A stretch of DNA of 64,000 bases from Acidobacteriota bacterium (GCA_050258555.1 JBLMZA010000129.1:21026-85025), one strand, 5' to 3'. Positions 468-53,751 are shown, counted from the stretch's first letter. The notes: generated by a model not told the origin, from the sequence alone. Made by a program: numbers and translations.

Positions 468-2375
468 ATGAACCATGTGCGACAACTTTTGATTGTGCTT
501 GCGCTCCTGATCGCCGGACTCGGGGCTGTGACACAGGCCCAACCCCAGAGGACCGACGCGATCTGGGCGCGCACGGCGCCTGCGGGTTCGCTCACCGTCG
601 ACGGACGGATGAACGAAGCGGCATGGGCGTCGGCCGAGTCGATCTATGTGGAATACGGCAAGATCGCCGGCATTCCCGGAAGCGGCTACACGGCAGAGAC
701 CGGCATCCCGAAGGATCCGGTGCGCGCCGTCGTGAAATTTCTCGTCTCCGGCAATCAGCTCTATCTCGGCATCACCGTGCAGGACAGTTCGATCGGCGGC
801 GCGAATCTTTCACCCGATAATTTCGGCGCGGCCGATGCGATCATCTTCAATGTCCGCGACAAATCCAATCCTTCGGCGCGCCCATCGCCGCCCACTGAAT
901 TTTTGTGGGGTTGGATCAAGGCCGACTGGATGAATACCGAAACGAACGTTTCGGCCGTCGGCGCCGGCCCCTCGACGGGCCCCAAGAACCGCTACACGAA
1001 GAACCGGTTCGAGACGGCGACGACCGTCAAGGGCGTCACCAACGACGACTCGAAGCCCGATACGAGCTACACGGTGGAGATGCGGATCAACCTCGATTCG
1101 CTCGGCTACAAAACCAACAATGCTTCGGGCGATATCGTGATGTTCAATATGGCCATCCGCGATATCGACTGGTACTGGCCCATCCAGGACTGGCTCACAT
1201 TCAGCCGCGTCTGGATCCAGGGACCGTGGGCGAACGTCTCGGAGCGCGATCACCTGCGCATTTATGCGCGGCCCGATGTCACCACAAGCTCGGGCGCCGC
1301 GCCGAAGATTCTTCCCGATGTCATCATTCCTAACGGAAAGAATTTCGCAACGCCCGCGATCGACGGCAGGCTCACGGAACCCGTGTGGAAGGCGATCAAG
1401 GGATTCGATATCCGCTGGAACGATTCGACGCTGCGCGACACGTATCCCGGCACGGGTCCCTTCCGAAGCGGACAGTATCAGCCCGAGATTAACGGCGGCA
1501 AGGCCAATGTGATCGATCCGGCCAATGCGACCGTGAAATGGTTCTTCAACGCCGACACGCTGTATATCGGCATCGATGTGCGCGACAAGGTCGTGCAGTA
1601 CTCGAGCCTTTATGACCGCTGGGATGGCGCCATTGTCACGATGGTCGACCGCGGCAAGACAAACGATCTGGATCACGATCTCATGTCGCGCAAGCTCACC
1701 GTGCAGGTCGATTCGGCGAAGGCGAATCCGACGCGCTTGCAGGATTATCTTCCCTTCCTGCGCGATTCCTTGAACGGCGCGCGCGCCGTGCTCTCGCTCA
1801 ATTCCGGCACCGTGGTCGATACGACGGGCGTGAAGGCCGACTCCGGCTATCAGATCGAAATGGCGATCGCATTGACGAAGATGGGATACCCGGCGGGGCG
1901 CGGAGACGGCATCGTCTTTCTCGGCGTCGACATCCTGGACGGCGACTCGTTCATTCCGGCCACGAACAGCTACGGCACGCGCACCTGGTGGTTCCGCGAG
2001 CACGACGGCTCTGACGGACCGGCCTTCTGCTACATGGATCCGTCATCTGTCGTGACGGCGGTCGGGCGCGAAGAAACGTCTGCGATTCCCTCGGAGTTTG
2101 CCGTCATCGGAACCTATCCCAATCCGTTCAACCCTGCCACATCGATCCGGTATATGATGCCGCAGGCGGGAGAGGTGACGCTGGAAGTCTATGACATGCT
2201 CGGCCGCCGCGTCGCGCAGCGTGCCCTGGGGCTGCAGAGCGCCGGAGAGCACACGGCGCGCTTCGACGCGTCGCATCTGAGCTCGGGCGTGTATCTCTAC
2301 AGGCTGCAGCTTGCAGGCGCTTCGACGGGCCGCATCGCTTCCACGTCCTACCGGAAGATGATGCTTGTGAAGTGA
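468..2375 (+). CDS. Secreted glycan-binding protein: two CBM9/DOMON-like domains plus T9SS type A CTD
   Basis: Sec signal peptide; repeated LTVDGRMNEAAW / PAIDGRLTEPVW motifs and YTVEMRI / YQIEMAI ends typical of CBM9-like folds; C-terminal YPNPFNP...SSGVYLY...RKMMLVK; no catalytic domain recognised. Confidence 0.75.
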   Translation: MNHVRQLLIVLALLIAGLGAVTQAQPQRTDAIWARTAPAGSLTVDGRMNEAAWASAESIYVEYGKIAGIPGSGYTAETGIPKDPVRAVVKFLVSGNQLYLGITVQDSSIGGANLSPDNFGAADAIIFNVRDKSNPSARPSPPTEFLWGWIKADWMNTETNVSAVGAGPSTGPKNRYTKNRFETATTVKGVTNDDSKPDTSYTVEMRINLDSLGYKTNNASGDIVMFNMAIRDIDWYWPIQDWLTFSRVWIQGPWANVSERDHLRIYARPDVTTSSGAAPKILPDVIIPNGKNFATPAIDGRLTEPVWKAIKGFDIRWNDSTLRDTYPGTGPFRSGQYQPEINGGKANVIDPANATVKWFFNADTLYIGIDVRDKVVQYSSLYDRWDGAIVTMVDRGKTNDLDHDLMSRKLTVQVDSAKANPTRLQDYLPFLRDSLNGARAVLSLNSGTVVDTTGVKADSGYQIEMAIALTKMGYPAGRGDGIVFLGVDILDGDSFIPATNSYGTRTWWFREHDGSDGPAFCYMDPSSVVTAVGREETSAIPSEFAVIGTYPNPFNPATSIRYMMPQAGEVTLEVYDMLGRRVAQRALGLQSAGEHTARFDASHLSSGVYLYRLQLAGASTGRIASTSYRKMMLVK

Positions 2376-2415: not shown

Positions 2416-5103
2416 ATGAACCGTCCTTCCTTGTTCCAGTGCACGCCGCGCGCGCTTCTGCGCGCGGCGCTGCTTGCTGCCGTGAGCCTCACAGCGCTCA
2501 CGCGCGTCTCTGCCGATACGCGCGGCAAACTCACCGGCGTGATCACCGACCAGACAAATACGCCCATCCCCGGCGTCACGGTCGTGCTTGCCGGCACAAC
2601 CATGGGCACGGCCACCGATCCCTCGGGCTATTACGTGATCATCAACGTTCCGCCGGCGGCCTACGAGGTGCGCATCTCGAGCGTGGGCTACCAGCCGAAG
2701 GTCGTGCGCAATGTGCGCATCTCGGCCGGAGAGACCACCACGCTCGATGAAAAGCTTTCGGAAGAAGTGGTGCAGGGAAAGGAAGTCGTCGTCGTGGCCG
2801 AGCGCCCGCTGGTCGATACGCGCCAGACAAGCGCCGTCTCGATTCTGAACAACGAACAGATCGCCGTGCTTCCGGTGCAGAATCTGCAGGATATCGTCAA
2901 TATCCAGGCCGGCGTGGTCGACGGCCATTTCAGAGGCGGACGGCTCGGCGAAGTGCAGTATCAGGTCGACGGCGTTTCGGTCAATAATCCCCTGACCAAC
3001 CAGTCGACCGTACAGCTCGACCGCTCGGTGCTGCAGGAAGTGCAGGTCATCAGCGGCACATTCGATGCCGAATACGGACAGGCCATGAGCGGCGTGGTGA
3101 ACGCCGTGCTCAGAAGCGGACGCTCCGATGCGTATGAGTGGAGCGCCGAAACGTATTTCGGCGACAATGTCTCCTTCGGCACCAATCCGCGCTTCCCGCA
3201 TCTGGAAAACTTCGATCCGCTTGCCTATCAGAGCTATCAGGCGACCGTGAGCGGACCCGTACCGATGGTGCCCAAGACGACATTCCTTTTGAGCGGCCGC
3301 CGCTATAAAAGCGACGGCTACCTCTTCGGCACGCGGCTTTTCATGCCGACCGACACATCGGATTTCAACAACCGGATTCTGCATCCGACCGGCGACGGGA
3401 AACTTGTGCCGCTTCAGACACAGGACGAGTATTCGGGGCAGGTCAAGATCACGAACTCCTCGATCCAGGATATACAGCTGTCCTATCAGGCCATTTTCAA
3501 TTATTCGGAAAACAAGCCGTACCGGTTCGACTTCCGTTTCAATCCCGAAGGCGTCAAGACGCCGAAAAATTTCTCGCTTGTGCACGGCCTGGATCTGACG
3601 CACATGCTCACGGAAAAAACATTCTACACGCTCAACCTCCGCCAGAACCATGTCGATTACCGCGACTACAAATACGCGAACATCAACGATCCGCGCTACT
3701 ACCTGGCCGGAAGTCCGAAGGGCGATCCGAATTATGAAAACGGCGCGCTCATACAGGGCGTGGATCTGGACCGCTACACCGAAAAAACCGACGTCTATAT
3801 CGGCAAGGCGTCCCTCACAAGCCAGGTCACATCGATCCATCTGGTAAAAGTCGGCCTCGAGCTGCAATTGTCCGACATCACATACGGAAAGCCCGGCGTG
3901 ATCATTCCGACGACCGTGGGCGGCGTGACGATGCTCATGCCGCATGTCGATGATCCGAACTATCCGGGACCGAAGCGCTACAAGCCCGTGTCGTTTGCCG
4001 CCTACGCCCAGGACCGCGTCGAGTGGAAGGATGTGATGGTGCGCGGCGGGCTCCGCTTCGAATATTTCGACGCCAATACGACCGTGCCCGGCAATCTTCA
4101 GAATCCGGCCAACGCCATCACCGGGCAGCCGACGGCGCCCGCGAAGCATACGAGCGTGAAGGCCGTGCTTGCGCCGAGACTCGGCGTGTCGTATCCGATC
4201 ATCACCAACGGTTCGCTCTATTTTTCGTACGGACATTTTTATCAGCTTCCGGCCATCAGCCAGTTCTTCTCGAACTCCGATTATTCGCTCCTGAAGGATC
4301 TGCAGTCGGGCGGACTGAATTTCGGCGTGATGGGCAATCCCGACCTCAAGCCCGAGTTCACGACGCAGTATGAGTTCGGCATGAAGGCGCAGATGAGCGA
4401 GATGTTCGGCCTGGACGCCAGCCTGTTCTATAAGGATATCCGCGACCTGCTGGGCGTCGAGTTCATCGAGACATACAACACGGCGCAGTACACGCGCCTG
4501 ACGAATGTCGACTTCGGCGGCGTCTCGGGCTTCACGCTCGCGCTCGAGTTCCGCTCTGGTCCCATGCTCTCGGCCACGCTCGACTACACGTATCAGAATG
4601 CGGAGGGCAATTCAAGCGATCCGTCCGAAACCGCCGTGCGCGCCTCGGCCGGACAGGATGCGCGGCCGCGCGTGACGCCCTTCGCGTGGGATCAGCGCCA
4701 CACGATCAATGCCTCTCTGACCATACAGGAGGCGAATAATTTTTCCGTCACATCGATCGTCAAGTACGGATCGGGCCAGCCCTATACGCCCGCGATCGGC
4801 TCGGGCTTCGGCGCCGAGCTCGAAAACAATTCGGGCGTCAAGCCCGCCGGCGTCACGGCGGATATGCGCGGCGAGAAGCTCTTCGACATCGGAGGCGGTG
4901 TGCAATTGAGCGTCTTTGCGCGCATCTACAATCTGTTCAACACCTCGTTCTTCAACGGATTCGTCTTTGCCACCACGGGCTCGCCCGATTATTCGCTCAC
5001 GGCTTCGAGCGACCGCGCGACGCTCCAGGATCCGGGACGCTTCTATGCGCCCCGGCGCATCGAACTGGGATTATCCATCAAGGGATCGACACTCGTACCA
5101 TGA
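2416..5103 (+). CDS. TonB-dependent receptor (non-SusC type) with N-terminal CarboxypepD_reg-like domain
   Basis: Signal peptide; GKLTGVITD...PIPGVTV...GTATDPSGYY domain; plug motif HFRGGR...YQVDG and ISGTFDAEYGQAMSGVVN; GNPDLKPE and PRRIELGL barrel motifs. Confidence 0.92.
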   Translation: MNRPSLFQCTPRALLRAALLAAVSLTALTRVSADTRGKLTGVITDQTNTPIPGVTVVLAGTTMGTATDPSGYYVIINVPPAAYEVRISSVGYQPKVVRNVRISAGETTTLDEKLSEEVVQGKEVVVVAERPLVDTRQTSAVSILNNEQIAVLPVQNLQDIVNIQAGVVDGHFRGGRLGEVQYQVDGVSVNNPLTNQSTVQLDRSVLQEVQVISGTFDAEYGQAMSGVVNAVLRSGRSDAYEWSAETYFGDNVSFGTNPRFPHLENFDPLAYQSYQATVSGPVPMVPKTTFLLSGRRYKSDGYLFGTRLFMPTDTSDFNNRILHPTGDGKLVPLQTQDEYSGQVKITNSSIQDIQLSYQAIFNYSENKPYRFDFRFNPEGVKTPKNFSLVHGLDLTHMLTEKTFYTLNLRQNHVDYRDYKYANINDPRYYLAGSPKGDPNYENGALIQGVDLDRYTEKTDVYIGKASLTSQVTSIHLVKVGLELQLSDITYGKPGVIIPTTVGGVTMLMPHVDDPNYPGPKRYKPVSFAAYAQDRVEWKDVMVRGGLRFEYFDANTTVPGNLQNPANAITGQPTAPAKHTSVKAVLAPRLGVSYPIITNGSLYFSYGHFYQLPAISQFFSNSDYSLLKDLQSGGLNFGVMGNPDLKPEFTTQYEFGMKAQMSEMFGLDASLFYKDIRDLLGVEFIETYNTAQYTRLTNVDFGGVSGFTLALEFRSGPMLSATLDYTYQNAEGNSSDPSETAVRASAGQDARPRVTPFAWDQRHTINASLTIQEANNFSVTSIVKYGSGQPYTPAIGSGFGAELENNSGVKPAGVTADMRGEKLFDIGGGVQLSVFARIYNLFNTSFFNGFVFATTGSPDYSLTASSDRATLQDPGRFYAPRRIELGLSIKGSTLVP

Positions 5104-8100
5104 AAACACTCCGACTGCATCATGTCATACTGCTTGCCACAGCGCTTGCGTGCGCGACGCCCGCGTTGGCGCAGCGCAAACTGTTTCCGAGCGTGCCTCC
5201 GGAAAAGCGGGGCAACAAGGATTTCGAGCGCACCGGCACGCACGATGCCAACAACATCCGCACGCTCTTCAAAAACTTCGGCATGGTCGGATCCTATCCC
5301 GACGCCGAAGGCTATTCGGATGTGACGAAAGTCGACTTGAGCGTCTTCCACTCGGTGGAAGCGCCCAAAGGCACGGGCATGAATTATTCGGACGGCATCA
5401 CGCCCTTCGTGCTGGCGCGCGTGAAGCAATCCACCGGCGACGACGTCTACATCATGGAGACGGGATTCAGGGAGCGCCAGCAATTGAGTCCCACCAAAAA
5501 CCGCGTGATGCGCTTCGAGCCTCGTCCGGGGTACATGCAGGAGAACGCCTCGATCAATATCGACCGCTCGCCGGCCATGAGCCACCTCGAGCGCACCTGG
5601 CCCGATGAGTGGCCCGACAAGCTCGATGATCCGGATGATCCGGGATGGAAGGGCGCATGGAACGGGTACTTCGGCAAGAAGCCCAACGCGAGCCAGGAAA
5701 GTTACTTCGTGATGGACGACGATTACTACGACGCCTGGCGCGACTTCGTGCCCGATACGCGCGATCCGAGCCGGCGCGGACTGGGACTGCGCGTTGAAGT
5801 GCGCGGCTTCCAGTGGCAGAATCCCCAGGCCGGCAATGTGATCTTCTGGCATTACGACATCGCCAATGAAGGCACATACGACTACAACGAGAATATCATC
5901 TTCGGCCTCTATATGGATTCGGGCGTCGGCGGCTCCGCGCTCGGCTGCGATCCGCTGCCGGAGTCGGATGACGACAATGCCTTTTACGACAAGTCGCTCG
6001 GACAGAACCTCGTCTATACCTGGGACACGTATGGCCACGGCGTGAATCTCAGTTCGTCGTGCGGACAGACGGGCTATCTCGGCTACGCATACCTCGAAAC
6101 GCCGGGAAAGGATTACGACCGCATCGACAACGACGACGACGGCATGACCGATGAAAGCCGCACATCCGCTCCCGGCCAAAAGATCACGGGACAGCAGGCG
6201 ATCCGTGAGTACGCTCAGTCGCATTACGACATGGCGAAGTTCACGCTCGCCTATGGTCCGATCGAGAACCGTCCGGCCTACAAGGCGGGCGTGTGGTGGA
6301 CGGGCGATGAGGATATGGACTGGACCGCCGAGTTCAACGACACGGGCGCCGACGGTCTTGCCGGCACGCACGATACGGGCGAGGGCGACGGCATGCCCAC
6401 CAACGGAGAGGAGAATGTCGACAAGACCGATCTGCATGAATCGGATCAGATCGGACTCACCGGGTTCAAGATGAACCGCATCAAGGCCGGCTCGACGCAT
6501 CCGAGCGATCCGGTGGACGGCATCACCTTCTATAATGACGGCACGAAGAACTGGCCGTATCTGCTCTACCAGCAGTTTGCCGATCCCGTCTTTTCGAAGC
6601 ATTTCGATCAGCCGCTGACGCAGGATTACAATATCGCGTTTCTCTTCGCCTCCGGCCCCTTCAATCTTCCGGCCGGAAGCCGCGAGCGCTTCAGCCTGGC
6701 GCTCTCCTACGGACCCACGCTCCAGGATCTGAAGCGCACGGTGAAGATCGTGCAGCAGATCTACAACGCGAACTACCGGTTTGCCGAGCCTCCCCCCACG
6801 CCGACGCTGCATGCCGAGACGGGCGACAAGTCTGTGCGCCTGTCCTGGGACGATGCCTCGGAGCGCGGAGTGGATCCCGTCACGTTCCAGAACGATTTTG
6901 AAGGCTACAAGATCTACCGCGCCACCGATCCCGAGTTCCGCGATGTGCATGTGATCACCAACGGACAGGGCACGGGTCCGATGGTCTTCGGCCGTCCGCT
7001 GGTCACGTTCGATCTTGCCGACAACAAAACCGGGTACTCGAGCCAGATCGTGGAGGGCGTCGGATACTATCTCGGCGACGATACCGGCATCCGCCATGAG
7101 TTCAGGGATACGACGGTCGTGAACGGGCAGACGTATTTCTATGCGCTCGTCTCGTACGATTACGGCTCGGATTCGCTCGGGTTCTTCCCCTCGGAAAATG
7201 CCGTCTCCGTCTCGCGCACGCCGCGCGGCGGCATCGTGCTGCCGAAGAATGTGGTGGAAGTCAGGCCCGAGCCGAAGACAGCCGGGTACGTGCCGGCGCA
7301 GGCCTCTGCGCTTCGGCACACGCAGGGCACCGGAAGCGGAACGCTCGCGCTGGAGATCGTCAATTCGAATCTCGTTCCGGACAAGCGGACGCTCCTTCTG
7401 CAGTTCAAGACCGATCGCCCGGAGCATATCCGCGCCGATTATTACACGCTCTCCGACAGCGCCTCAGGCACGGTCTACATCGACCGCGGCACGGACTTCT
7501 CCGGAGCGGGCACGGGACAGGTGGGCGCGGGCGTGAAGCCCGTTATTGCAACGGCGCTGCTGCCGTCGTTCAACGCCGATACGACGGTCTCGCGCTTCAT
7601 ACAGAATGCGGGCGCGTCCACGATCCGGTTGAAGATGACATTCAATCCGGGACTCGACAGGAACACGCGCCATCTCGGCTATCCCTTCAACCTGATCGTG
7701 CGCTTCAGCGCAAGCGTGATCGATACCTCCGTCGACTATGACTTCTCGCATCCGGGCATTCCCGCCAAAATGAAGGTGTCGATGGTGAGTGCGCCCGGGC
7801 AGGAGCGACAGCTGAAGTACGTGCTGCACGACGAAAACAGCGACGGGCTGCTTTCCACGGTGAACGATTATCTCGATCTCATCGATACGACGATGAATAT
7901 CTACGGATTGAACAATCTCACCTGGCGCATACAGCTCGATACGGCGGGGCAGTGGAAACGCGGAGCGCTCGTGCTGCCCTCGACCGGCGATGCGTACATG
8001 CTCGGTGTCTCGACACCCTTGAGCGCGGGCGATATCTATTCCTTCCGCACCGAAGCGCAGAAGATCGATCCGTCGAAGGCGCGAACCGACTTTGCCGAAG

Positions 8101-8405
8101 CGCCCTATGTCGTGCCCAATCCGTATGTGGGCGCGGCAAGCTTCGAGCCCGAGCGCTTTGCGATTTCGGGCCGCGGCGAGCGCCGCCTGGAATTCCGCAA
8201 TCTTCCGGCCAAATGCACGATCCGCATCTACACGGTCAAGGGAGATCTCGTGCGGACGCTCGAGCATGACGGCTCGAATTCCGGCATGGTGCCCTGGGAT
8301 CTGCGCACGAAGGACAATCTCGATGTCGCGCCCGGCCTCTATATTTTCTTTGTGGACGGCAAGGATGCCGGAACGCATTCAGGCAAGTTTGCCATTATCA
8401 AGTAG
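5100..8405 (+). CDS. Large secreted protein of unknown function with Asp-rich Ca-binding loops, FN3-like domain and VVPNPY-type T9SS/FlgD-Ig-like CTD
   Basis: ATGA overlap with TBDR stop; signal peptide; DNDDDGMTDE and DTGADG...DTGEGDG loops; PPPTPTLHAETGDKSVRLSWD FN3-like segment; C-terminal YVVPNPYV...LEFRNLP...IRIYTVKGDLV...WDL...PGLYIF...FAIIK. Confidence 0.75.
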   Translation: MKTLRLHHVILLATALACATPALAQRKLFPSVPPEKRGNKDFERTGTHDANNIRTLFKNFGMVGSYPDAEGYSDVTKVDLSVFHSVEAPKGTGMNYSDGITPFVLARVKQSTGDDVYIMETGFRERQQLSPTKNRVMRFEPRPGYMQENASINIDRSPAMSHLERTWPDEWPDKLDDPDDPGWKGAWNGYFGKKPNASQESYFVMDDDYYDAWRDFVPDTRDPSRRGLGLRVEVRGFQWQNPQAGNVIFWHYDIANEGTYDYNENIIFGLYMDSGVGGSALGCDPLPESDDDNAFYDKSLGQNLVYTWDTYGHGVNLSSSCGQTGYLGYAYLETPGKDYDRIDNDDDGMTDESRTSAPGQKITGQQAIREYAQSHYDMAKFTLAYGPIENRPAYKAGVWWTGDEDMDWTAEFNDTGADGLAGTHDTGEGDGMPTNGEENVDKTDLHESDQIGLTGFKMNRIKAGSTHPSDPVDGITFYNDGTKNWPYLLYQQFADPVFSKHFDQPLTQDYNIAFLFASGPFNLPAGSRERFSLALSYGPTLQDLKRTVKIVQQIYNANYRFAEPPPTPTLHAETGDKSVRLSWDDASERGVDPVTFQNDFEGYKIYRATDPEFRDVHVITNGQGTGPMVFGRPLVTFDLADNKTGYSSQIVEGVGYYLGDDTGIRHEFRDTTVVNGQTYFYALVSYDYGSDSLGFFPSENAVSVSRTPRGGIVLPKNVVEVRPEPKTAGYVPAQASALRHTQGTGSGTLALEIVNSNLVPDKRTLLLQFKTDRPEHIRADYYTLSDSASGTVYIDRGTDFSGAGTGQVGAGVKPVIATALLPSFNADTTVSRFIQNAGASTIRLKMTFNPGLDRNTRHLGYPFNLIVRFSASVIDTSVDYDFSHPGIPAKMKVSMVSAPGQERQLKYVLHDENSDGLLSTVNDYLDLIDTTMNIYGLNNLTWRIQLDTAGQWKRGALVLPSTGDAYMLGVSTPLSAGDIYSFRTEAQKIDPSKARTDFAEAPYVVPNPYVGAASFEPERFAISGRGERRLEFRNLPAKCTIRIYTVKGDLVRTLEHDGSNSGMVPWDLRTKDNLDVAPGLYIFFVDGKDAGTHSGKFAIIK

Positions 8406-8411
8406 ACGGTG

Positions 8412-9443
8412 ATGAATATGAACCTCTCTCTGTTTCGACACGCGGGCGCACGGATTGCGGCGGCCCTCATGCTGTTCTCCGCTCTGGCGCTGCCGCAGAG
8501 CAAGACGGGCACGACCGTGGGGCAGTTCCTCCTGATCGAGCCGAGCGCGCGCATCGCAGGCATGGGCAATGCGGGCGCGACCGCTGTCGGCGAAGCCTCG
8601 GCCCTCTACTATAATCCCGCCGCGCTCGGCGCTTCCATCAGTTCCGATGCCGAGTTCGCGCACAGCCAGTGGCTTGCCGGCATCGCCTACAATTACGCCG
8701 CCGCATCGATCCACGTGACCGACGCCAGCGCGATCGGACTCTCGGTCACCTCGCTCAATTCGGGCGAGATCGCCGTGCGCACGGTCGAGGCTCCGCTCGG
8801 CACCGGAGAGCGCTACACGGTGTCCGACATGGCCATCGGCGTGGCCTACGGCCAGAAGATCACCGACCGCTTTTCGGCCGGACTCCAATTGAACTACATT
8901 CAGGAGACGATCTGGCATTCCAGCCTTGCGGCCTTCGGCATCAACTTCGGCACGCTCTACCAGATCACCTCCGACGGACTCATGCTCGGGGCCAGCATCT
9001 CGAACTTCGGCACCCGCGCCCGCTATGACGGCAGCGACTTGAGAATCCGTTATGATCTCGATCCGTCGCGCTACGGAGACAACAGCAGCATTCCGTCCGA
9101 AATCCAGACCGACCAGTTCCCGCTGCCGATCGTCTTCCGCGTCGGCTTCGGCTATCCGCTCGTGATCAACGAGAGCAACATGGTGCATCTGGCCGTCGAC
9201 GCGCTCCATCCGAGCGACAATTCGGAAAGCGTGAGCCTCGGCGCCGAATATGTCTTCATGAAGACATTCGCACTTCGGGCGGGATATCAGCGCCTGTTTG
9301 AAACCGATTCGGAAGTCGGCCTTACGCTCGGGGCCGGCATCGACTATGAACTGACGCCGTATTCCATCCGCATCGATTACGGATGGGCGACGCACGAGAG
9401 CCTGGGAGACATGCAGCGCTTCAGTGTGGGGGTTTCTTTTTAA
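8412..9443 (+). CDS. PorV/PorQ-family outer-membrane beta-barrel (T9SS cargo shuttle-like)
   Basis: GQFLLIEPSARIAGMGNA...ALYYNPAAL N-terminal motif of the PorV/FadL-like family; C-terminal Phe (FSVGVSF); start may be GTG 8409 or ATG 8412/8418. Confidence 0.85.
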   Translation: MNMNLSLFRHAGARIAAALMLFSALALPQSKTGTTVGQFLLIEPSARIAGMGNAGATAVGEASALYYNPAALGASISSDAEFAHSQWLAGIAYNYAAASIHVTDASAIGLSVTSLNSGEIAVRTVEAPLGTGERYTVSDMAIGVAYGQKITDRFSAGLQLNYIQETIWHSSLAAFGINFGTLYQITSDGLMLGASISNFGTRARYDGSDLRIRYDLDPSRYGDNSSIPSEIQTDQFPLPIVFRVGFGYPLVINESNMVHLAVDALHPSDNSESVSLGAEYVFMKTFALRAGYQRLFETDSEVGLTLGAGIDYELTPYSIRIDYGWATHESLGDMQRFSVGVSF

Positions 9444-9455
9444 ATTCAATTCGGG

Positions 9456-11339
9456 ATGGAATGCATGAGGAATATTGTTTCGGCTCTATCGATGCTTGCT
9501 GTGTTTGGAACCACGCTTGCGGCCTTGGCCGCGCCGGCAGTGCCGCAGAAACCCGTGACGCGCTCGGGCGACAGAAGCGTTGTCGTGCACTGGAATCAGA
9601 ATACGGATACGGAGACCACGGGCTACAGAGTCTACCGGGCCACGAGCATCGCGGGGCCGTATCAGGAGCTCACCTCCTCGAACGCCGCGGAGCTTTCCGG
9701 ATATGCCGATTGTTCGGTCTCGAACAACCGGCGCTACTTCTATTATGTGCGCGCCCAGAACGCGCAGCAGGAACTCTCCGCGAGCTCCGATACGGTCGAC
9801 GCCGCGCCGCAGAGCTTTGCGTCAGACGAGGCGTTTCTTGACTACGTCGAACAGACGGCCTTCGATTATTTCTGGTATGAAGCCAATCCCTCAAACGGAC
9901 TCGTGAAGGATCGCAGCACGCGCGGATCCTCATCGAGCATCGCCGCCACGGGCTTCGGCCTCACGGCAATCGGCATCGGCATCGACCGCGGCTGGATCAC
10001 GCGCCAGGAAGGCAGGGAGCGCACGATGGCCGCCCTCTCCACATTCTGGCAGGGACCCCAAAGCGTGCTGCCCTCAGGCATGATCGGATACAGGGGCTGG
10101 TTCTATCATTTCCTTGATATGAAAAACGCCGTGCGCGCCGGAACTTCCGAGCTCTCATCGATCGATACGGGACTGCTGCTTGCGGGCATCCTTTTTTCAA
10201 AGCAGTATTTTGAAGGAAGCGACACCACGGAAGTCCGCATCCGCGCGCTTGCCGATTCGATCATCCGGCGCGTCGACTGGAACTGGATGCGCAATAACGG
10301 CTCGACGCTCACCATGGGATGGAATCCGGGCTCGGGCTTCATCAACGCGCGCTGGACGGGATACAACGAGGCGATGATCCTCTATATTCTCGGCATCGGC
10401 GCGCCCTCCGCTCCGCTTCCTTCATCGAGCTGGAGCGCCTGGACATCGACCTATCAGTGGTTCTTCAATACGTGGCTCGGCGACTACTTCGTGCAGTTTC
10501 CTCCGCTCTTCGGGCATCAGTATTCGCACTGCTGGGTCGACTTCAGAGCGATCGCCGACGGCTACATGAAGTCGAAGGGCATCACGTATTTCGAAAATTC
10601 GCGCCGGGCGACATTGGCCCAGCGCCTCTACTGCATCGACAATCCGCGCGGCGCCACAGGCTACGGACCCAATGTCTGGGGCATCACGGCCTCCGATGTG
10701 CCGACGGGCTATGCCGCGCGCGGCACGAACTATAACGACGACGGCACGATCAACCCGACCGCTCCCGGCGGCTCGATGCCCTTCGCACCCGAATTCTGCC
10801 TGCCCGCACTCAAGACCATGTACGAGCTCTACCGCGAGAAGATCTGGACGCCGTACGGGTTTTCGGATGCGTTCAATCTGAGCGTCACGCCCGCATGGTT
10901 CGATCCGGCCGTCCTGGGCATCGATCAGGGACCGATCGTGATCATGATTGAAAACTACCGCACAGGCTCTGTCTGGAATCGATTCATGAAGGAAAAGATC
11001 GTCGCCGACGGATTGGCCCGGGCCGGCTTCACGAGCGTCACATCGGTCGAAGACCGCGACGGGGCGCTCGCTCCGCACGCATATCGGCTTGAACAGAATT
11101 ATCCCAATCCCTTCAATCCGGCAACGGAGATCCGGTTTCATCTTGGCGCGCAGGCCCGCGTCATACTCAGCATCTCGAATGTGCTCGGAGAGGAAGTCTC
11201 GCGCCCCATCGACGGCGTTCTTGCATCGGGCGCTCACCAGGTGAGCGTTGATGCCGGGAAGTGGGCAAGCGGCGTCTATTTCTATACGCTCAAAGCCGGA
11301 GCCTTTACACAGACACGCAGGATGCTTCTTCTGCGATAG
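9456..11339 (+). CDS. GH144 (glucoamylase-like PF10091) endo-beta-1,2-glucanase-type enzyme with N-terminal FN3 and T9SS type A CTD
   Basis: SIAATGFGL, GWFYHFLD, ELSSIDT, GYNEAMILY, PLFGHQYSH, YFENSRRA, WGITASD, YGFSDAFN, GIDQGPI motifs; YPNPFNP CTD. Confidence 0.88.
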   Translation: MECMRNIVSALSMLAVFGTTLAALAAPAVPQKPVTRSGDRSVVVHWNQNTDTETTGYRVYRATSIAGPYQELTSSNAAELSGYADCSVSNNRRYFYYVRAQNAQQELSASSDTVDAAPQSFASDEAFLDYVEQTAFDYFWYEANPSNGLVKDRSTRGSSSSIAATGFGLTAIGIGIDRGWITRQEGRERTMAALSTFWQGPQSVLPSGMIGYRGWFYHFLDMKNAVRAGTSELSSIDTGLLLAGILFSKQYFEGSDTTEVRIRALADSIIRRVDWNWMRNNGSTLTMGWNPGSGFINARWTGYNEAMILYILGIGAPSAPLPSSSWSAWTSTYQWFFNTWLGDYFVQFPPLFGHQYSHCWVDFRAIADGYMKSKGITYFENSRRATLAQRLYCIDNPRGATGYGPNVWGITASDVPTGYAARGTNYNDDGTINPTAPGGSMPFAPEFCLPALKTMYELYREKIWTPYGFSDAFNLSVTPAWFDPAVLGIDQGPIVIMIENYRTGSVWNRFMKEKIVADGLARAGFTSVTSVEDRDGALAPHAYRLEQNYPNPFNPATEIRFHLGAQARVILSISNVLGEEVSRPIDGVLASGAHQVSVDAGKWASGVYFYTLKAGAFTQTRRMLLLR

Positions 11340-11342
11340 TGA

Positions 11343-14300
11343 ATGAAAAAGCCTATGACGATCCTGATGCGCATGCGGGTTTGCTTCCTTCTCACGCTTA
11401 TGATGCTCGTCTCTGTGCCGGGTTTCGGCATCGCGGCAGGGGACGATGCGCCGCGCCTGCTCGATGATTTTGAAACATTGTCCTCCTGGCACCCGATCGT
11501 TTCCGAAGGCGCGAAGCTGTCGCTCTCGCTTCAGAAGGATGACCGCACGGGCTCATCCTGCATGGCGATGGATTTCGAACTCGTGGGCGTCTACGGGTAT
11601 GTGATCGCCGAGAAGGATGTCTCGATCGATGTGCCGGAGAACTACGAGTTCACGTTCGATTTGAAGGCGGACATCCCGGTCAATAATTTCGAATTCAAGC
11701 TCATCGACGAGAAGGAGAATGTCTTCTGGATCAAGAAGTTGAATGTCGAGTATCCGAAAAACTGGCAGAAGCAGACGATCAAGAAGCGGCACATCACATT
11801 TGCCTGGGGACCGACGAAGGGGGCGGAGCTGCGTCATGTGAAGAAACTGCAGATCGTGGTTTCTTCGGGACAGGGAGGCCGGGGGCGCGTCCTGGTCGAC
11901 AACCTGAAATTTGAAGCGCTGAAGGATCCTTCCGCGATCGATGCGCGCGGCACATTCTCGTCGTCGAGCGCACATGCGGAAGCCCGGATCGATGTCAAAG
12001 GCGGCGTGCTTTCCGACTGGCAGAGCGGAGAAAAGGATTCGGCCTGGATCGTGATCTCGTACAATTATCTGAAGGAAATCGGCGGCCTCATGCTCGAGTG
12101 GAACGGCACGCGCTTTGCGCGGCGCTATGCGGTCGAGCTTTCGGATGACGGCAAAGAGTGGATGACGGCCTACGAAGTGAAGGAAGGCAATGGCGGACGC
12201 GACTGGATCTATCTGCCCGAGAAGGAAGGCCGTGCGCTGCGCCTCCGGTTTTTTGAAAGCAACGATGGCACAGGCTACTCGCTGCGGCGCATGGAAGTGA
12301 AGGGATCGGAGTTTTCGCTCGATGCGAATCATTTTTTTTCGGCGATGGCGCAGGAAAGCGCAAAAGGCCGCTTCCCGAAATATTTTCTGAACCAGGCGAG
12401 CTATTGGACGATCGCCGGTGCGAATGCCGACCGGAAGGAAGCGCTCATCAATGAAGAGGGCATGATCGAAGTCGACAAGGAAGCCTTCTCGATCGAGCCC
12501 TTTCTCCTGCTTGACGGAAAACTTGTCGCATGGAGCGATGTCGAGTGCACGCAGTCGCTCGAAGACGGATATCTTCCCATTCCCTCCGTCACCTGGAAGC
12601 AGGATTCGCTCACGCTTCGCATTCGGCTTCTTGCTTCCGGCGAAGCCGGACGCTCGCTTTTGATCGCCTCATACAGGCTTGTGAATACGCGCGCACGTGC
12701 GCTGGAAGGAACGCTCTTTCTTGCCCTGCGTCCCTTCCAGGTGAATCCGCCCTGGCAGTGGCTCAACAGCCTGGGCGGGGTCTCGCATCTGAAGACGATC
12801 GAGATGGGGCCGGATCTGATCAGAGCCGATGACCGCCGTGTGGTTCCGCTTGCGCGTCCCGACGCCTTCGGCGCCGCCATATTCGACAGCGGCGACATCA
12901 CCGAGTATCTTGCCCGGGGGAGCGTGCCCGAGGCGCACAGCGTCTCCGATCCTGCGGGCTTTGCCTCGGCGGCGATCGGGTACCGCTTCAGACTCGCGCC
13001 CGGCGATTCGGCAGAGTATCACATGGCCGTGCCCTTCCATGAGGCGACCCCGCTGCCGCATGCGGCAATGGAGGATGGCGGAAGATCGTTCGTGAAGGCG
13101 GCCGTCGATTCGACATCCAGGTTCTGGAAGCGGAAGCTCGACAGAGTCGGCATCCGTCTTCCCCGATCGGCCATGGATGTCATCAACACCGTGAAGTCGA
13201 ATCTCGCCTACATCCTCATCAACCGGGACAGCGCGGGCATACAGCCGGGGTCGAGAAACTATGAACGCTCCTGGATCCGCGACGGCTCGCTCACATCGAC
13301 CGCGCTGCTGCAATTGGGCATCGACAAGGAAGTGAGGGAATATCTCGACTGGTATGCCGGCTTCCAATATCCGTCGGGCAAGATCCCGTGCGTGGTCGAC
13401 CGGCGCGGCGCCGATCCGACGCCGGAGCACGACAGCCACGGCGAATTTCTCTATGCCATCCGCACGTATTTCCAATATTCGCGCGATACCTCATGGCTCA
13501 GAGGAAAATTCGACCGGGTCGTGAAGACCGTGCGCTACATCCATGAGCTGAGAGCCGAGCGCATGACCGGGCGCTACCGAAGCGGCGCGAAGGAGGAGCA
13601 CGCGCTCTACGGACTCCTTCCCGAATCGATCAGCCACGAAGGCTATTCGGATATGCCGCGGCATTCGTACTGGGACGATTTCTTCGCGCTGCGCGGATTG
13701 AAGGATGCCGAGGCCATGGCGCGGGCGCTCAAGGAGGCGGGATACGCGCGTGAGTTCGCGCGCGAGCGCGACGAGTTCCGCCGCGATCTCTACGCCTCGA
13801 TGCGCCTGGCGATGAAGAATACGAAGATCGATTTCATTCCGGGATGCGCCGAGCTCGGAGACTTCGACGCCACATCGACCACGATCGGCATCATGCCCGG
13901 GGGCGAGCTGGGAAATATTCCCGAGCCGGCCCTGCACAACACGTTCGAAAAATATTACGCGTATTTCAGCAGCCGGAAAAATGATGCGATTGCCTGGACG
14001 AACTACACGCCGTATGAAAACCGCGTGATCGGCACATTCGTCATGCTCGGCGAAAAGGACCGGGCGCAGGAGGCGATGCGTTATTTCCTGCATGACCGCC
14101 GGCCTGCTGCATGGAATCACTGGGCCGAAGTCGTGTGGCGCGACCCCTCGACGCCGAAATTCATCGGCGATATGCCGCACACCTGGGTCGGCTCGGATTT
14201 CATCCGCTCCATCCGGGCGATGTTCGTTTATGAGCGCGAGAAGGATCAGTCGCTTGTGATCGGCGCGGGCATTCCCGAAGCATGGCTTTCCGATTCTGCG

Positions 14301-14549
14301 GGCGTTTCCGTTTCCGCGCTGCCGACGGTCTACGGGCGCCTCAGTTTTACGATGACGAAGAAGGAGCATTCCGCCATTGTCTTTGTCTCGGGCGCCGAGC
14401 TTCAGATGCCCGAAGGCGGCATCATTCTTCACTCGCCGCTCGACCGACCGGTGAAAGCCGTGCGCGTTGACGGCGGACGACTCCGCGCGATGCATGCGCG
14501 AAGCATTCTTGTGCGATCGCTGCCGGCGAGCGTGGAATTTTTCTATTGA
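11343..14549 (+). CDS. Discoidin (F5/8C, CBM32-like) domain protein with CBM11-like N-terminus and unclassified (alpha/alpha)6 glycoside hydrolase-like domain
   Basis: Signal peptide; LLDDFE start of galactose-binding-like domain; YAVELSDDGKEW discoidin motif; C-terminal SWIRDGS, EHDSHG, ESISHEGY, HSYWDDFFALRGL, GDMPHTW six-hairpin motifs; no T9SS CTD. Confidence 0.75.
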   Translation: MKKPMTILMRMRVCFLLTLMMLVSVPGFGIAAGDDAPRLLDDFETLSSWHPIVSEGAKLSLSLQKDDRTGSSCMAMDFELVGVYGYVIAEKDVSIDVPENYEFTFDLKADIPVNNFEFKLIDEKENVFWIKKLNVEYPKNWQKQTIKKRHITFAWGPTKGAELRHVKKLQIVVSSGQGGRGRVLVDNLKFEALKDPSAIDARGTFSSSSAHAEARIDVKGGVLSDWQSGEKDSAWIVISYNYLKEIGGLMLEWNGTRFARRYAVELSDDGKEWMTAYEVKEGNGGRDWIYLPEKEGRALRLRFFESNDGTGYSLRRMEVKGSEFSLDANHFFSAMAQESAKGRFPKYFLNQASYWTIAGANADRKEALINEEGMIEVDKEAFSIEPFLLLDGKLVAWSDVECTQSLEDGYLPIPSVTWKQDSLTLRIRLLASGEAGRSLLIASYRLVNTRARALEGTLFLALRPFQVNPPWQWLNSLGGVSHLKTIEMGPDLIRADDRRVVPLARPDAFGAAIFDSGDITEYLARGSVPEAHSVSDPAGFASAAIGYRFRLAPGDSAEYHMAVPFHEATPLPHAAMEDGGRSFVKAAVDSTSRFWKRKLDRVGIRLPRSAMDVINTVKSNLAYILINRDSAGIQPGSRNYERSWIRDGSLTSTALLQLGIDKEVREYLDWYAGFQYPSGKIPCVVDRRGADPTPEHDSHGEFLYAIRTYFQYSRDTSWLRGKFDRVVKTVRYIHELRAERMTGRYRSGAKEEHALYGLLPESISHEGYSDMPRHSYWDDFFALRGLKDAEAMARALKEAGYAREFARERDEFRRDLYASMRLAMKNTKIDFIPGCAELGDFDATSTTIGIMPGGELGNIPEPALHNTFEKYYAYFSSRKNDAIAWTNYTPYENRVIGTFVMLGEKDRAQEAMRYFLHDRRPAAWNHWAEVVWRDPSTPKFIGDMPHTWVGSDFIRSIRAMFVYEREKDQSLVIGAGIPEAWLSDSAGVSVSALPTVYGRLSFTMTKKEHSAIVFVSGAELQMPEGGIILHSPLDRPVKAVRVDGGRLRAMHARSILVRSLPASVEFFY

Positions 14550-16999: not shown

Positions 17000-18408
17000 G
17001 CGAGATGCGACTGACAACGATACTGTGGTGTTTCTGCTTCCTGATGGCGTGCCCGGACCGGTCCGAGTCGGCCTCGGGCCGCTCCGCGGCTTCTCCGTAT
17101 TTCAGAGACGGATTCTTGGACACGCTGCAGCGCCGGACGTTTCTCTACTTCTGGGAACAATCGGATCCCGTGCGCGGCATGACGCCCGACCGTGCGCCGA
17201 CGCGCACATTCTCGAGCGTGGCGGCCACGGGCTTCGCGCTCACCTGTTATCCGATCGGCGCGGAGCGCGGCTATGTGACGCGCGCTGCGGCAGCAAAGCG
17301 CGTGCGTGCCGCGCTGAAATTTTTCCACACGGCTCCGCAATCATCCGATGCGTCGAAGGCATCGGGGTATCGGGGATTTTTCTATCACTTCCTCGATCTT
17401 GAAACCGGGCTGCGCTTCGAGCGCACGGAGCTTTCGACGATCGACACGGCATTGCTGCTTGCAGGCATGCTCTTTTGCCAGTCGTATTTCGACCGGAGGA
17501 CAACAGAGGAGACCGAGATCCGCGCGCTTGCCGATTCGATCTACCGGCGCATCGAATGGAACTGGGCGATGAACGGTGGTCCGACGCTCTCGATGGGCTG
17601 GCATCCCGAAGACGGATTCATCCGCGCGCGCTGGCGCGGCTATAACGAGGCGATGCTTCTGTATGTGCTCGCACTCGGTTCGCCCACGCATCCGATTCCG
17701 GATACGGCATGGAGCGCGTGGACCGACACGTACATCTGGGCGCCGTATTATGGAATGCCCTTTGTGAGCTTCGGTCCGCTCTTCGGCCATCAGTATTCGC
17801 ACTGCTGGATCGACTTCCGCGGCATCCGCGACGAGTACATGCGCGCGCGGCAAATCGATTACTTCGAAAACTCACGGCGCGCCGTCTACTCGCAGCAAGC
17901 GTATGCGAAGGAAAATCCGCGGCGCTTCCGCGGCTATTCGGACAGCGTCTGGGGACTCACGGCCTGCGACGGACCCGGATCGTTCACGCTTCGTGTGGAC
18001 GGAGCGAAGCGCACATTCGACGGCTATGCCGCGCGCGGCTGCTCCTTCGACTGGGTGAACGACGACGGCACGATCGCCCCCACGGCCGCGGGAGGATCCC
18101 TGGCCTTTGCGCCCGAAATCGCGCTTCCGGCGCTCCGCGCGATGAAGGCGCGCTACGGCGAGCGCGTCTATCGGCGCTACGGCTTCATCGACGCCTTCAA
18201 TCCGACCTGCGTGAAGGATGCGCCCGAGGGATGGTTCGATCACGACTATCTCGGCATCGACCAGGGGCCGATCGTGATCATGATCGAGAATCTCCGCAAT
18301 GAATTTGTCTGGAAGACCATGAAAAAAAATCCGTATATCATCCGTGGACTGCGCCGGGCGGGATTCGGCGGCGGCTGGCTCGATGCGGCGAAGGAAAGCA
18401 GGCACTGA
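16996..18408 (+). CDS. Second GH144 enzyme, probable lipoprotein/periplasmic
   Basis: Start reassigned to ATG overlapping the GH94 stop (MSEMRLTTILWCFCFLMAC); SVAATGFAL, GFFYHFLD, ELSTIDT, GYNEAML, PLFGHQYSH, GIDQGPI; no T9SS CTD. Confidence 0.88.
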   Translation: MSEMRLTTILWCFCFLMACPDRSESASGRSAASPYFRDGFLDTLQRRTFLYFWEQSDPVRGMTPDRAPTRTFSSVAATGFALTCYPIGAERGYVTRAAAAKRVRAALKFFHTAPQSSDASKASGYRGFFYHFLDLETGLRFERTELSTIDTALLLAGMLFCQSYFDRRTTEETEIRALADSIYRRIEWNWAMNGGPTLSMGWHPEDGFIRARWRGYNEAMLLYVLALGSPTHPIPDTAWSAWTDTYIWAPYYGMPFVSFGPLFGHQYSHCWIDFRGIRDEYMRARQIDYFENSRRAVYSQQAYAKENPRRFRGYSDSVWGLTACDGPGSFTLRVDGAKRTFDGYAARGCSFDWVNDDGTIAPTAAGGSLAFAPEIALPALRAMKARYGERVYRRYGFIDAFNPTCVKDAPEGWFDHDYLGIDQGPIVIMIENLRNEFVWKTMKKNPYIIRGLRRAGFGGGWLDAAKESRH

Positions 18409-18415
18409 AGCGCGC

Positions 18416-23386: not shown

Positions 23387-23401
23387 GAAGAACAAGACGC
23401 G

Positions 23402-24220: not shown

Positions 24221-24588
24221 CGCTTAAAAACTTCTAATCCGCATTAGCGATTTCTAACGATGATTTCGCCCGCACGCATGCTATCTTCCCTGTGTCACAA
24301 GACCTGAGCGCTCCCGGAATAGACTGAGTCTGATCATGGCATCGTCATGGCGCCGGAGCGTGCGGGCGGCAAGTTTCGTGTGCTGAATGAGGTGCGTGCG
24401 AGGGGAGACGAACTTACTGCTTGCGCATCCGGCGCTCTTTACCATCGACGGCGGCACCCCGGGGGCGGCTCCGCCCTCCGGCAAAAAAAATGTACTGCTA
24501 TTTAGTAAAATTATTTCTACCTTCCTACAAAAGCCGATTTTCAATTGCTGCCGTCAATTGGGCTTTTCTAACACCACTGAAGACATTT

Positions 24589-37285: not shown

Positions 37286-37291
37286 TTTTTC

Positions 37292-37325
37292 AGGGACCGG
37301 CCGCCCGGCGGCCGTCCCTTTTTTT
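37292..37325 (+). terminator. Intrinsic terminator-like hairpin between exbB and exbD
   Basis: AGGGA-C-CGGCCGC-ccg-GCGGCCG-TCCCT followed by a T run. Confidence 0.75.
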
Positions 37326-37350
37326 AGGAAATGCCATTTAAGAGAGACTT

Positions 37351-37809: not shown

Positions 37810-37829
37810 AATTTTGAAGGATATAAATC

Positions 37830-38354: not shown

Positions 38355-38391
38355 CAGTTTGAAAACATCATTGTGTTAAGGAGTTTATTCT

Positions 38392-53600: not shown

Positions 53601-53751
53601 GCCTGTGGTATTCCTTTCGATATGGTCATAGCCGGCTTTGTAAAAGTTACCATATTCGCCCCGGAAAAACAAGACGGCTTTCTTCTCAGTCAAATTATTT
53701 CTATTTTTTATCACGATCGGCTTTCCCATCACCAGACACAGACAGGACGCG

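Follow-up and report, generated by a model that had tools for sequence, protein, structure and literature searches.

We analysed a 64,000-nucleotide stretch of DNA from an Acidobacteriota bacterium (GCA_050258555.1 JBLMZA010000129.1:21026-85025), hereafter the window, in whose coordinates positions are given, and within it three adjacent genes at positions 2416–9443 that encode a TonB-dependent receptor, a large secreted protein referred to here as the partner, and an outer-membrane barrel of the PorV/PorQ family. A preliminary description of the sequence had proposed that this triad is a glycan-uptake module coupled to the type IX system of protein secretion (T9SS), in which a private barrel keeps the partner at the cell surface and the partner replaces the lipoprotein SusD. 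The features of the triad are as follows.

2416..5103, + strand: TonB-dependent receptor of 895 aa, with a CarboxypepD_reg domain, a plug and a 22-strand-type barrel, not a SusC by the curated model
5100..8405, + strand: the partner, 1101 aa, with a Sec signal peptide as read from the sequence, from a family that is unnamed and very large
5208..6779, + strand: partner residues ~37–560, a galactose-mutarotase-like β-supersandwich with acidic DxDxDG-type loop insertions, by AlphaFold2 (AF2) model
6793..8069, + strand: partner residues ~565–990, an FN3-like domain and then β-sandwich domains (the stalk), by secondary structure with pLDDT 80–94
8097..8405, + strand: partner residues 1000–1101, a PorZ-like C-terminal domain (CTD) comprising VVPNPY, a conserved ~20-residue loop and a type-A-like β-sandwich core ending KFAIIK
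8409..9443, + strand: outer-membrane barrel of 344 aa, of the PorV/PorQ family but neither a PorV nor a PorQ equivalog

The three open reading frames (ORFs) were recovered on the plus strand with the same boundaries that the preliminary description had given, and the tight coupling it reported is real: the receptor stop and partner start overlap in the sequence ATGA, and the partner's TAG stop is separated by 3 bases from the GTG start of the barrel.

In the receptor, Pfam models place PF13620/PF13715 at residues 39–126, the plug at 137–227 and the barrel at 370–840, and the protein passes the gathering scores of PF00593 (112 bits against 27) and PF07715 (24.3 against 23.9). The claim that it is not SusC-like stands in so far as it reaches 72.5 bits on the SusC/RagA model TIGR04056, whose cut-off is 368.25, with a best stretch of residues 38–162 against model positions 2–119; this score comes through the N-terminal ~120 residues only, and the CarboxypepD_reg domain found there is, however, a feature common with SusC. 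The best match of the receptor among PDB sequences was the haem receptor PhuR, at just 2.7e-11. No SusD-family gene lies directly downstream of the receptor, and the partner matched none of PF07980, PF14322 and PF12771. The same three models gave 0 matches each throughout the genome, whose completeness by markers is 100%, so the absence of SusD originally noted for the window extends to the genome. A single receptor in the genome is over the SusC cut-off (398 bits summed), in the region 82224-86631 of contig C94 (L106:4225-8632). The gene after it encodes a 503-aa protein that matches TPR_2 only (E 0.027) and nothing in NCBIfam or the PDB, and this protein may be a SusD that has diverged very far. 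Next in line are a Reg_prop/Y_Y_Y histidine kinase and a LytTR regulator, a layout that resembles a Bacteroides polysaccharide utilisation locus (PUL).

The partner C-terminus gave no match at E≤0.01 to the type A CTD models (TIGR04183 / PF18962) in NCBIfam or Pfam, and none at that threshold to the type B model TIGR04131. Its last 106 residues matched FlgD_ig only (E 0.0031), and some paralogous partners showed sub-threshold to borderline type A matches (16–23.5 bits against 23). The tail does differ, as had been noticed at the outset, from those of the neighbouring products of 468–2375 and 9456–11339, both of which are over the type A cut-off. Residues 994–1100 of the partner instead weakly match positions 666–756 of the PorZ model (E 5e-5). 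When the partner was used in a tblastn search of its own genome, the last ~100 residues were found at 12 other places, 9 of which directly precede a barrel of the PorV/PorQ family. A profile built from the tails of ten triads matched 15 ORFs of the genome near full-length; a barrel follows within 95–192 nt in 11 of these, a figure that is partly circular because the seed tails had been picked as preceding barrels, as those behind the 9 of 12 had not. Two more have a barrel within their cluster, one stands on a 12-kb contig that lacks a barrel, and the last is the genome's own PorZ (336.5 bits on NF052228 against 260), recovered over profile positions 7–104 at E 1.2e-11. A further 27 ORFs, including both copies of PorU and many carbohydrate-active enzymes (CAZymes), match only the last ~60–70 positions of the profile, which are type-A-like, and just three of them precede a barrel: PorU before PorV on contig C88, a Big_5 protein on C38 and one on C148. 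Since type A tails are so rarely barrel-followed (3/27), ordinary cargo does without private barrels. What distinguishes the partner tail is its N-terminal VVPNPY strand and the ~20-residue loop, which is invariant among orthologues at S1014, F1015, E1016, G1024–G1026 and R1028 and was modelled at low confidence. By these profile comparisons the tail is PorZ-like rather than type A, and the searches of the genome support the earlier suggestion of a distinct CTD class that goes with the barrel following it.

On the PorV/PorQ family model NF033709 the barrel reaches 208.5 bits (cut-off 90; model positions 1–326), and it is below the cut-offs of the PorQ equivalog NF033711 (93.1 against 220), the PorV equivalog NF033710 (85.9 against 250) and the PorP/SprF model TIGR03519 (22.3 against 90.55). 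Its profile matches the solved PorV 6h3i_F at 4.5e-17. The partner is thus followed by its own PorV/PorQ-family barrel, as proposed; ‘dedicated’ holds in the sense that the barrel is co-encoded, but not in the sense of a one-off, since it is one of 18 paralogues of the family over the cut-off in the genome. In a tree of these 18, PorQ stands apart with two others (support 85/82) and the remainder is unresolved, the triad barrel not being placed with PorQ. Contig C38 (L100:5149-10884) carries a 1493-aa Big_5-repeat protein with an FlgD_ig-type tail and then a 416-aa PorV-family barrel with a C-terminal SH3_3 domain; this barrel has no receptor adjacent to it and groups with the housekeeping PorQ in the tree.

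The interaction of the tail with the barrel was modelled from the barrel (39-row alignment) and partner residues 985–1101 (42-row alignment) in three runs alongside three controls. The CTD–barrel interface that the preliminary description had envisaged was found in the prediction, with an ipSAE of 0.93 in each of the three runs against 0.00 for the best control, agreement between runs in at least 90% of contacts, and a partner pLDDT of at least 73. The calibration mark for such predictions was reached by 58 of 80 solved complexes and by 2 of 110 mismatched pairs, counts that are only a rough guide here because the analysis used its own alignments. The confident interface takes in 15 of the 28 invariant tail residues (including Y1003–P1008, A1077–L1080, K1096, F1097 and K1101) and 10 of the 36 invariant barrel residues (including I43, W88, I92, S118, G119, V123, T125 and V126). 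The invariant tail loop 1014–1028 is outside the predicted interface and, we speculate, would therefore be free for another partner. The models support binding but fall short of demonstrating it, and we consider it quite probable that the CTD binds the barrel.

There is precedent for such an arrangement within the secretion machine itself. In the published accounts available to us, PorU and PorZ retain their CTDs, with PorV and PorQ as their respective anchors, and PorQ may receive its substrate directly from the translocon (PMC10947112, PMC12365241); in the text available, a review proposes that cognate PorV-like barrels shield CTDs from cleavage (PMC10202324). The T9SS core is over cut-off in this genome, with SprA (TIGR04189), PorU, PorV, PorQ and PorZ, the PorV that follows PorU scoring 260.8 bits on NF033710. 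PorU is found on contigs C88, C46, C123 and C151 as two C-terminal and two N-terminal halves, each at a contig end, which suggests two near-identical copies that broke the assembly. By analogy with these systems the partner is likely to be surface-exposed through the T9SS, and from the PorZ/PorQ precedent we infer that its CTD would be retained.

It might be argued that the barrel is unconnected with type IX secretion and is a FadL-like channel or receptor accessory, the partner being periplasmic or secreted and its tail a mere Ig-like domain. Several barrel paralogues do have weak Toluene_X/FadL matches in Pfam, and in the β-barrel assembly machinery (BAM) of Bacteroides the FadL/PorV-like barrel BamG binds a surface protein, BamH, via extracellular loops and has no T9SS role in the available text of that study (PMC12578637). 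However, the BamG model matches the triad barrel at E 6.9e-4 only (18.8 bits against 250) and the context is unrelated. The 208.5 bits on the PorV/PorQ model, a profile that finds solved PorV, a tail profile that picks up PorZ and, less strongly, PorU and the tails of type A cargo, and the complete T9SS in the genome all speak against a FadL-like role, which we regard as very improbable. On contig C112 a FadL/Toluene_X-like barrel of 508 aa (L102:6917-8443) comes immediately behind a PorV-family barrel, and both follow a partner-type tail and adjoin a Pel9A-like pectate lyase with a CTD.

We surveyed the synteny of the triad by scanning one genome per species, which confirmed 270 encoding stretches, and examined the best 80. 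By their record titles, a few of which look like binning errors, the 80 loci come from Ignavibacteria, Kryptoniota, Eisenbacteria, Krumholzibacteria, KSB1, Calditrichia/Caldithrix, Rhodothermales, Chlorobiota and unclassified ‘Bacteroidota’. Four loci (L012, L016, L043 and L088) are titled Synechococcus, Limnocylindria, Udaeobacter and Actinokineospora; each is of the type seen in the Fibrobacteres–Chlorobi–Bacteroidetes (FCB) group, and they are probably mis-binned contigs. A PorV-like ORF follows the partner in 79 of the 80 loci (the miss has 25 bases of room downstream), and a receptor homologue lies directly upstream of it in 75, four of the misses having fewer than 260 bases of room and the fifth being L046. 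At that locus (L046:7235-13177) receptor and partner form one long frame, either a real fusion or an upstream extension of the ORF call that hides the receptor. A CBM9 protein is found upstream of the receptor in 61 loci, all 19 misses having less than 3.3 kb of sequence upstream of the partner. A member of glycoside hydrolase family 144 or 94 (GH144 or GH94) is present in 73 of the 80; five of the misses have at most 1231 bases on the short side and less than 3.5 kb on the other, and the remaining two (L036 and L085) have 7.8 and 10 kb upstream and less than 1 kb downstream. Apart from L046, every miss falls where a contig ends. The estimated gap between receptor and partner has a median of 29 nt and is at most 138 nt in all 73 loci, and that between partner and barrel has a median of −1 nt (79 loci), with 75 of the 79 within −30 to +60. 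Median identity across loci was 56.7% for the partner, 52.0% for GH144 and 47.2% for GH94, the partner thus being no less conserved than the enzymes, in a comparison biased by the choice of loci on partner similarity. The survey bears out the conservation of the triad and its link to CAZymes across lineages, and the triad is almost certainly a conserved functional module in CAZyme loci.

The one-to-one pairing of partner and barrel in 79 of 80 loci suits a stoichiometric complex, and this bears on another reading of the barrel, namely that it is a locus-specific shuttle of the PorV type that escorts the partner, and perhaps neighbouring enzymes with CTDs, from SprA, the tail then being cleaved and the partner released or attached to lipopolysaccharide. 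PorV has been described as a shuttle for CTD cargo, in the available text of PMC5562754 and PMC10947112, the triad barrel is no closer to PorQ than to PorV, and two of its neighbours carry type A CTDs. The tail, however, is of the PorZ kind, whose CTD is reported in the text available to be retained (PMC10947112), and only 3 of the 27 type A tails are followed by a barrel. We therefore consider a shuttle that gives up its cargo unlikely, and continue with the reading in which the barrel would hold the partner.

The triad is not unique in its own genome. phmmer searches with the three proteins against the ORFs around each PorV/PorQ paralogue showed the order receptor, CTD protein, barrel on contigs C129 (the window), C101, C146, C12, C14, C159, C3, C135 and C96; with C94, where a GH18 gene stands between receptor and partner, the genome has at least 10 triads. 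Two variants are also present: on C119 the receptor is followed by a barrel, and a fragment of a partner-type tail lies 7 kb upstream, where the contig ends; on C112 a partner is followed by a barrel and the set is cut by the contig end. The order is permuted on C11 (L098:5610-11968), where barrel, receptor and partner are preceded by a TIG-domain protein and followed by GH30, alginate lyase, GH88 and a second GH30. C146 (L090) holds two tandem triads, the second receptor (2943-5837) and its partner-type gene running off the contig start. The middle proteins of the triads are 589–1265 aa long, differ in their N-terminal parts and match no Pfam family at 1e-5. The neighbours of the paralogous sets are as follows.

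C101: a CBM9 protein with CTD, a GH2 protein with CTD, GH3 and a major facilitator superfamily transporter
C12: a LacI regulator
C14: two GHL10 proteins with CTDs
C94: GH18 with CTD
C3: galactokinase, a Laminin_G_3 protein with CTD and two GH63-like proteins
C11: a ROK regulator, GH30, alginate lyase and GH88
C96: pectate lyase and a BNR protein with CTD
C112: a Pel9A-like protein with CTD

Over ten triads the similarity matrices of receptor, tail and barrel correlate with one another (Spearman 0.79, 0.65 and 0.73), values reached by 0 of 5000 label permutations. The triads therefore duplicated and diverged as units, from which contact between the proteins does not follow.

The nature of the partner itself was approached from its sequence and its predicted fold. 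It has no Pfam family at E≤0.01, no known CAZyme catalytic domain was found with Pfam or by comparing its profile with PDB sequences, and the N-terminal consensus gives no lipoprotein signal. The family comprises at least 2648 proteins at E≤0.001 among 7997 candidates scored, and in a library clustered at 50% identity at least 4516 representatives at E≤0.001, 2065 at 1e-10 and 527 at 1e-30. Relatives are 57–81% identical among the 120 matches listed, and the source names shown are ‘hypothetical protein’ with one exception, ‘fibronectin type III domain-containing protein’. An ESM Atlas search returned unnamed clusters only, and the sole match of the partner profile among PDB sequences was the Fn3-like 3mpc at E 0.19. 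A first model of the partner from 42 close orthologues had a mediocre pLDDT of 70, and its whole-chain Foldseek search returned generic FN3/Ig chains only, with PorZ (5m11) at rank 7 and a low TM; it was replaced by an AF2 model of residues 1–740 from a more diverse, 60-row alignment (pLDDT 88, pTM 0.86).

When the 740-residue model was compared with 48,161 representative chains using VIA-align, the N-domain matched supersandwich domains of carbohydrate enzymes at Z 15–20.6. The top match was dextran dextrinase 9ju0 (Z 20.6, root-mean-square deviation 3.0 Å, 260 residues aligned), with bacterial glucoamylase 1lf6 (Z 19.6), glucodextranase 1ulv (19.1) and 8rf9 (18.4) also among the matches. Enzymes of GH94, GH65, GH116 and GH92 likewise matched, and then aldose 1-epimerases at Z about 13–14; Foldseek gave the same enzyme families at low TM. 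The matching portion of the enzymes is the beta-rich one, which we take to be the accessory, non-catalytic supersandwich domain of GH15/GH94-type enzymes and not the catalytic barrel, and the partner model has no (α/α)6 domain. Residues 340–450, inserted in the supersandwich, hold dense invariant acidic motifs (DNDxDG..DE, GDEDxDW and GEGDG..DESDQ) that resemble thrombospondin-type-3 calcium sites, and from these motifs the acid-rich insertions look like calcium sites. We favour, with moderate confidence, the view that the modelled partner is a stalked carbohydrate-binding protein; an enzymatic role is also possible, and a shared fold is no proof of function.

The partner could, once tethered by its barrel, work alone as a surface glycan-binding protein or enzyme in the manner of SusE/F/G, with no receptor complex, the gene order then reflecting co-regulation. 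The GH18 gene between receptor and partner on C94 and the barrel–receptor–partner order on C11 agree with this, as do the occurrence of supersandwich domains in active lyases and epimerases and the invariant acidic residues of the family. Weighing against independence from the receptor are the ATGA overlap in the window, which is of the translational-coupling type, the adjacency of the receptor in 75 of 80 loci with short gaps in 73, and the divergence of receptor, tail and barrel in step across paralogues; weighing against an enzyme is that no known CAZyme catalytic domain was detected. We regard a stand-alone partner as a serious minority view, some way short of even odds, and return to the reading in which the three proteins serve one uptake module.

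An even sample of 151 genomes of the same phylum, in which related genomes are not independent, was searched for the partner family (E≤1e-10) and for SusD (PF07980), with the following results.

All genomes: partner family in 87 of 151, SusD in 78 of 151
The window's class: partner family in 36 of 37 (28 of 37 at E≤1e-50 by listed best E-values), SusD in 9 of 37 with one or two copies each
Coded families f15 and f20 together: partner family in 1 of 19, SusD in 18 of 19
Coded family f17: partner family in 4 of 4, SusD in 4 of 4
Coded family f27: partner family in 17 of 22, SusD in 22 of 22
Coded family f19: partner family in 0 of 31, SusD in 0 of 31

In f15 and f20 the listed genomes show 1–16 scored SusD matches, and nine of them stand at or above the 14 candidates scored, where the number is at least that given. 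The proposal that the module replaces SusD fits this genome, from which SusD is missing, but is too strong as a general rule because the partner family and SusD occur together in many genomes that belong to other classes than that of the window.

In the window, the triad sits in a run of co-oriented genes that begins with the CBM9 protein and ends with a two-component regulator. The neighbours, and two further sets of genes that bear on uptake and secretion, are listed below.

468..2375, + strand: protein with a CBM9 domain and a T9SS CTD of type A, conserved as the unit's first gene (Pfam CBM9_1, Por_Secre_tail; TIGR04183 37.2 bits against 23)
9456..11339, + strand: GH144-type endo-β-1,2-glucanase homologue with a type A CTD over the cut-off, probably a surface enzyme (Pfam Glycoamylase)
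11343..14549, + strand: protein of 1068 aa that has an F5/8 type C domain and weakly matches a six-hairpin glycosidase (Pfam)
14609..16999, + strand: GH94 match (PDB 8rf9, 1.1e-169)
16687..18408, + strand: second GH144-type protein, no CTD, the true start probably downstream of the listed ORF start
18344..21154, + strand: GH2-family glycosidase
21192..24220, + strand: sugar ATP-binding cassette (ABC) importer, a solute-binding protein and two permeases
24421..26321, + strand: PAS histidine kinase and LuxR-type response regulator
36539..39135, + strand: ExbB-ExbD-ExbD-TonB operon, candidate energiser of the receptor
52656..53807, − strand: housekeeping PorQ of the T9SS (NF033711 267 bits against 220)

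The last of these is the porQ that had been placed near 52.6 kb, and it is a true PorQ. Among PDB sequences the product of 9456–11339 matches 8xul at 1.1e-108 and the endo-β-1,2-glucanase 5gzh at 3.8e-61. We take β-1,2-glucan to be the probable substrate of the locus because of the GH144 and GH94 matches and because a homologous cluster of Ignavibacterium album has been studied enzymatically for this glucan, as set out in the available text of PMC8861115.

These observations can be combined in a model. Sec would carry the partner across the inner membrane, and the T9SS would carry it across the outer membrane via the partner's CTD, which, being of the PorZ kind, would be captured by the co-encoded barrel as PorQ captures PorZ; the tail would consequently not be cut by PorU, and the partner would be tethered non-covalently on the cell surface. 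There the mutarotase-like supersandwich, on its FN3/Ig-like stalk, would bind glucan chains or fragments. The surface GH144 enzyme would set these free and the CBM9 protein would collect them, two proteins that end in CTDs of type A. The TonB-dependent receptor, powered by ExbBD-TonB, would import the oligosaccharides, which the second GH144 and the GH2 enzyme would trim in the periplasm before uptake by the ABC system and phosphorolysis by GH94. On balance we prefer, with some reserve, to see the triad as the outer-membrane nutrient-uptake module of a β-1,2-glucan locus and as one copy of a multi-copy, SusD-independent, PUL-like system, and it probably does the job of the SusC/SusD pairs of Bacteroides. 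The preliminary interpretation is to this extent partly supported, by conservation, multiplication, the absence of SusD, the CTD class, predicted binding and the fold of the N-domain. That the partner caps the receptor like SusD, as a ‘lid’, is a conjecture that we think less likely than not. A wider view, that much of the FCB group outside Bacteroidia imports polysaccharides by an undescribed machine of receptor, large T9SS-delivered carbohydrate-binding cap and docked private barrel, and that this machine is a lipoprotein-free counterpart of the SusCD utilisome with the barrel docked beside the receptor, is taken as a whole similarly doubtful.

Several points count against the proposed uptake role. 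Lyases, mutarotases and YidC have supersandwich domains as well, a fold held in common does not establish function, and the analysis picked out no sugar-binding site in the partner. No CAZyme was seen around the triads of C159 and C135 within the stretch examined. That the genes are adjacent and were duplicated together speaks for a common inheritance and does not amount to binding of the partner to the receptor, and the count of tails followed by barrels has the partial circularity mentioned above. As the barrel is not grouped with PorQ in the tree, a simple PorQ/PorZ duplication is unsupported. Solved structures of PorV exist in the PDB (6h3i, 8gl6 and others) and some of them may include bound cargo CTDs, so the success of the complex prediction may partly reflect structures that the predictor had already learned. 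The partner module and SusD are weighted differently among lineages and are not mutually exclusive. Finally, although contigs of 200–320 bases from the locus, some identical to the window, are present in two metatranscriptome runs from two studies, none of these RNA-library contigs bridges two genes of the locus and DNA carry-over is possible, so they are no evidence of an operon transcript.

The triad shares features with several known systems. As in SusC/SusD of Bacteroidia, a CarboxypepD_reg-bearing TonB-dependent receptor is followed at once by the gene for a surface protein, and the pair is multiplied per genome, its copies standing, as in PULs, beside their own CAZymes, regulators and inner-membrane transporter. 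In contrast, the receptor fails the SusC model by the margin given above; the partner is neither a SusD nor a lipoprotein, is twice as long and has a beta-rich fold; the third gene, for the barrel, is obligatory; and the tether would be the T9SS rather than a lipid anchor. The closest parallel for the anchor would be the PorQ–PorZ and PorV–PorU subcomplexes of the T9SS attachment complex of Porphyromonas gingivalis, in which, as described in the available text, the retained CTD of a surface protein is held by a barrel of the PorV/PorQ family (PMC10947112, PMC12365241). The partner tail is most like that of PorZ, and the PorU and PorV genes of this genome have the same order as partner and barrel. 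Unlike PorZ, a β-propeller lipopolysaccharide carrier, or PorU, a sortase, the partner has a carbohydrate-fold protein as its cargo part; the partner–barrel pair, unlike PorQ–PorZ and PorV–PorU, is coupled with a receptor gene and with CAZyme loci and has a dozen copies per genome; and the barrel, unlike PorQ and PorV, falls below both equivalog cut-offs and outside the PorQ group. Type B CTDs and PorP/SprF (SprB/SprF, PG1035/PorP) offer, in the available text of PMC9143113 and PMC10202324, a further case of one CTD class with one co-encoded barrel for surface anchorage, from which the triad differs in that its partner tail has no type B match and its barrel scores far below the PorP/SprF cut-off.

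The β-1,2-glucanase (SGL) gene cluster IALB_1177-1187 of I. album has the same enzyme set, with two GH144 genes, GH94 and an ABC binding protein, and its description refers to a TonB-dependent transporter; neither partner nor barrel is discussed in the available text of that paper (PMC8861115), whose supplementary cluster figures S1 and S12 may label them. We found no published description of the triad in the full-text literature, a search that lay outside subscription journals and supplements, and the accessible text of a 2026 review of glycoside transporters (PMC13543919) has no mention of T9SS, type IX, PorV, Ignavibacteri-, Gemmatimonad- or Fibrobacter. All parts of the triad belong to known families, and the anchoring principle is known for PorZ/PorQ, PorU/PorV and type B CTD/PorP; what is new is the combination with a TonB-dependent receptor into a repeated, CAZyme-linked module found in many lineages, and also how large the unnamed partner family is.

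PUL prediction and much of the biology of glycan uptake depend on finding SusC/SusD pairs. Such lineages as Ignavibacteria, Calditrichia, KSB1, Eisenbacteria and Krumholzibacteria abound in soils and sediments and carry many CAZymes, often without SusD. If the proposed role is true, the module of receptor, CTD protein and barrel would be a marker for the glycan loci of SusD-poor lineages, and a function would be assigned to many unexplained PorV/PorQ paralogues. The anchoring principle of PorQ–PorZ would extend beyond the secretion machine itself, and the T9SS would gain a second general role in building nutrient-uptake complexes. The homologous β-1,2-glucan cluster of I. album, whose enzymes are already characterised according to the text available, makes the idea testable in that organism. 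Elsewhere in the window, a gene on the plus strand at 53752–55467 encodes a 571-aa Big_5 Ig-like protein; it starts beside the housekeeping porQ in divergent orientation and overlaps the listed ORF start of the latter by 56 bases.

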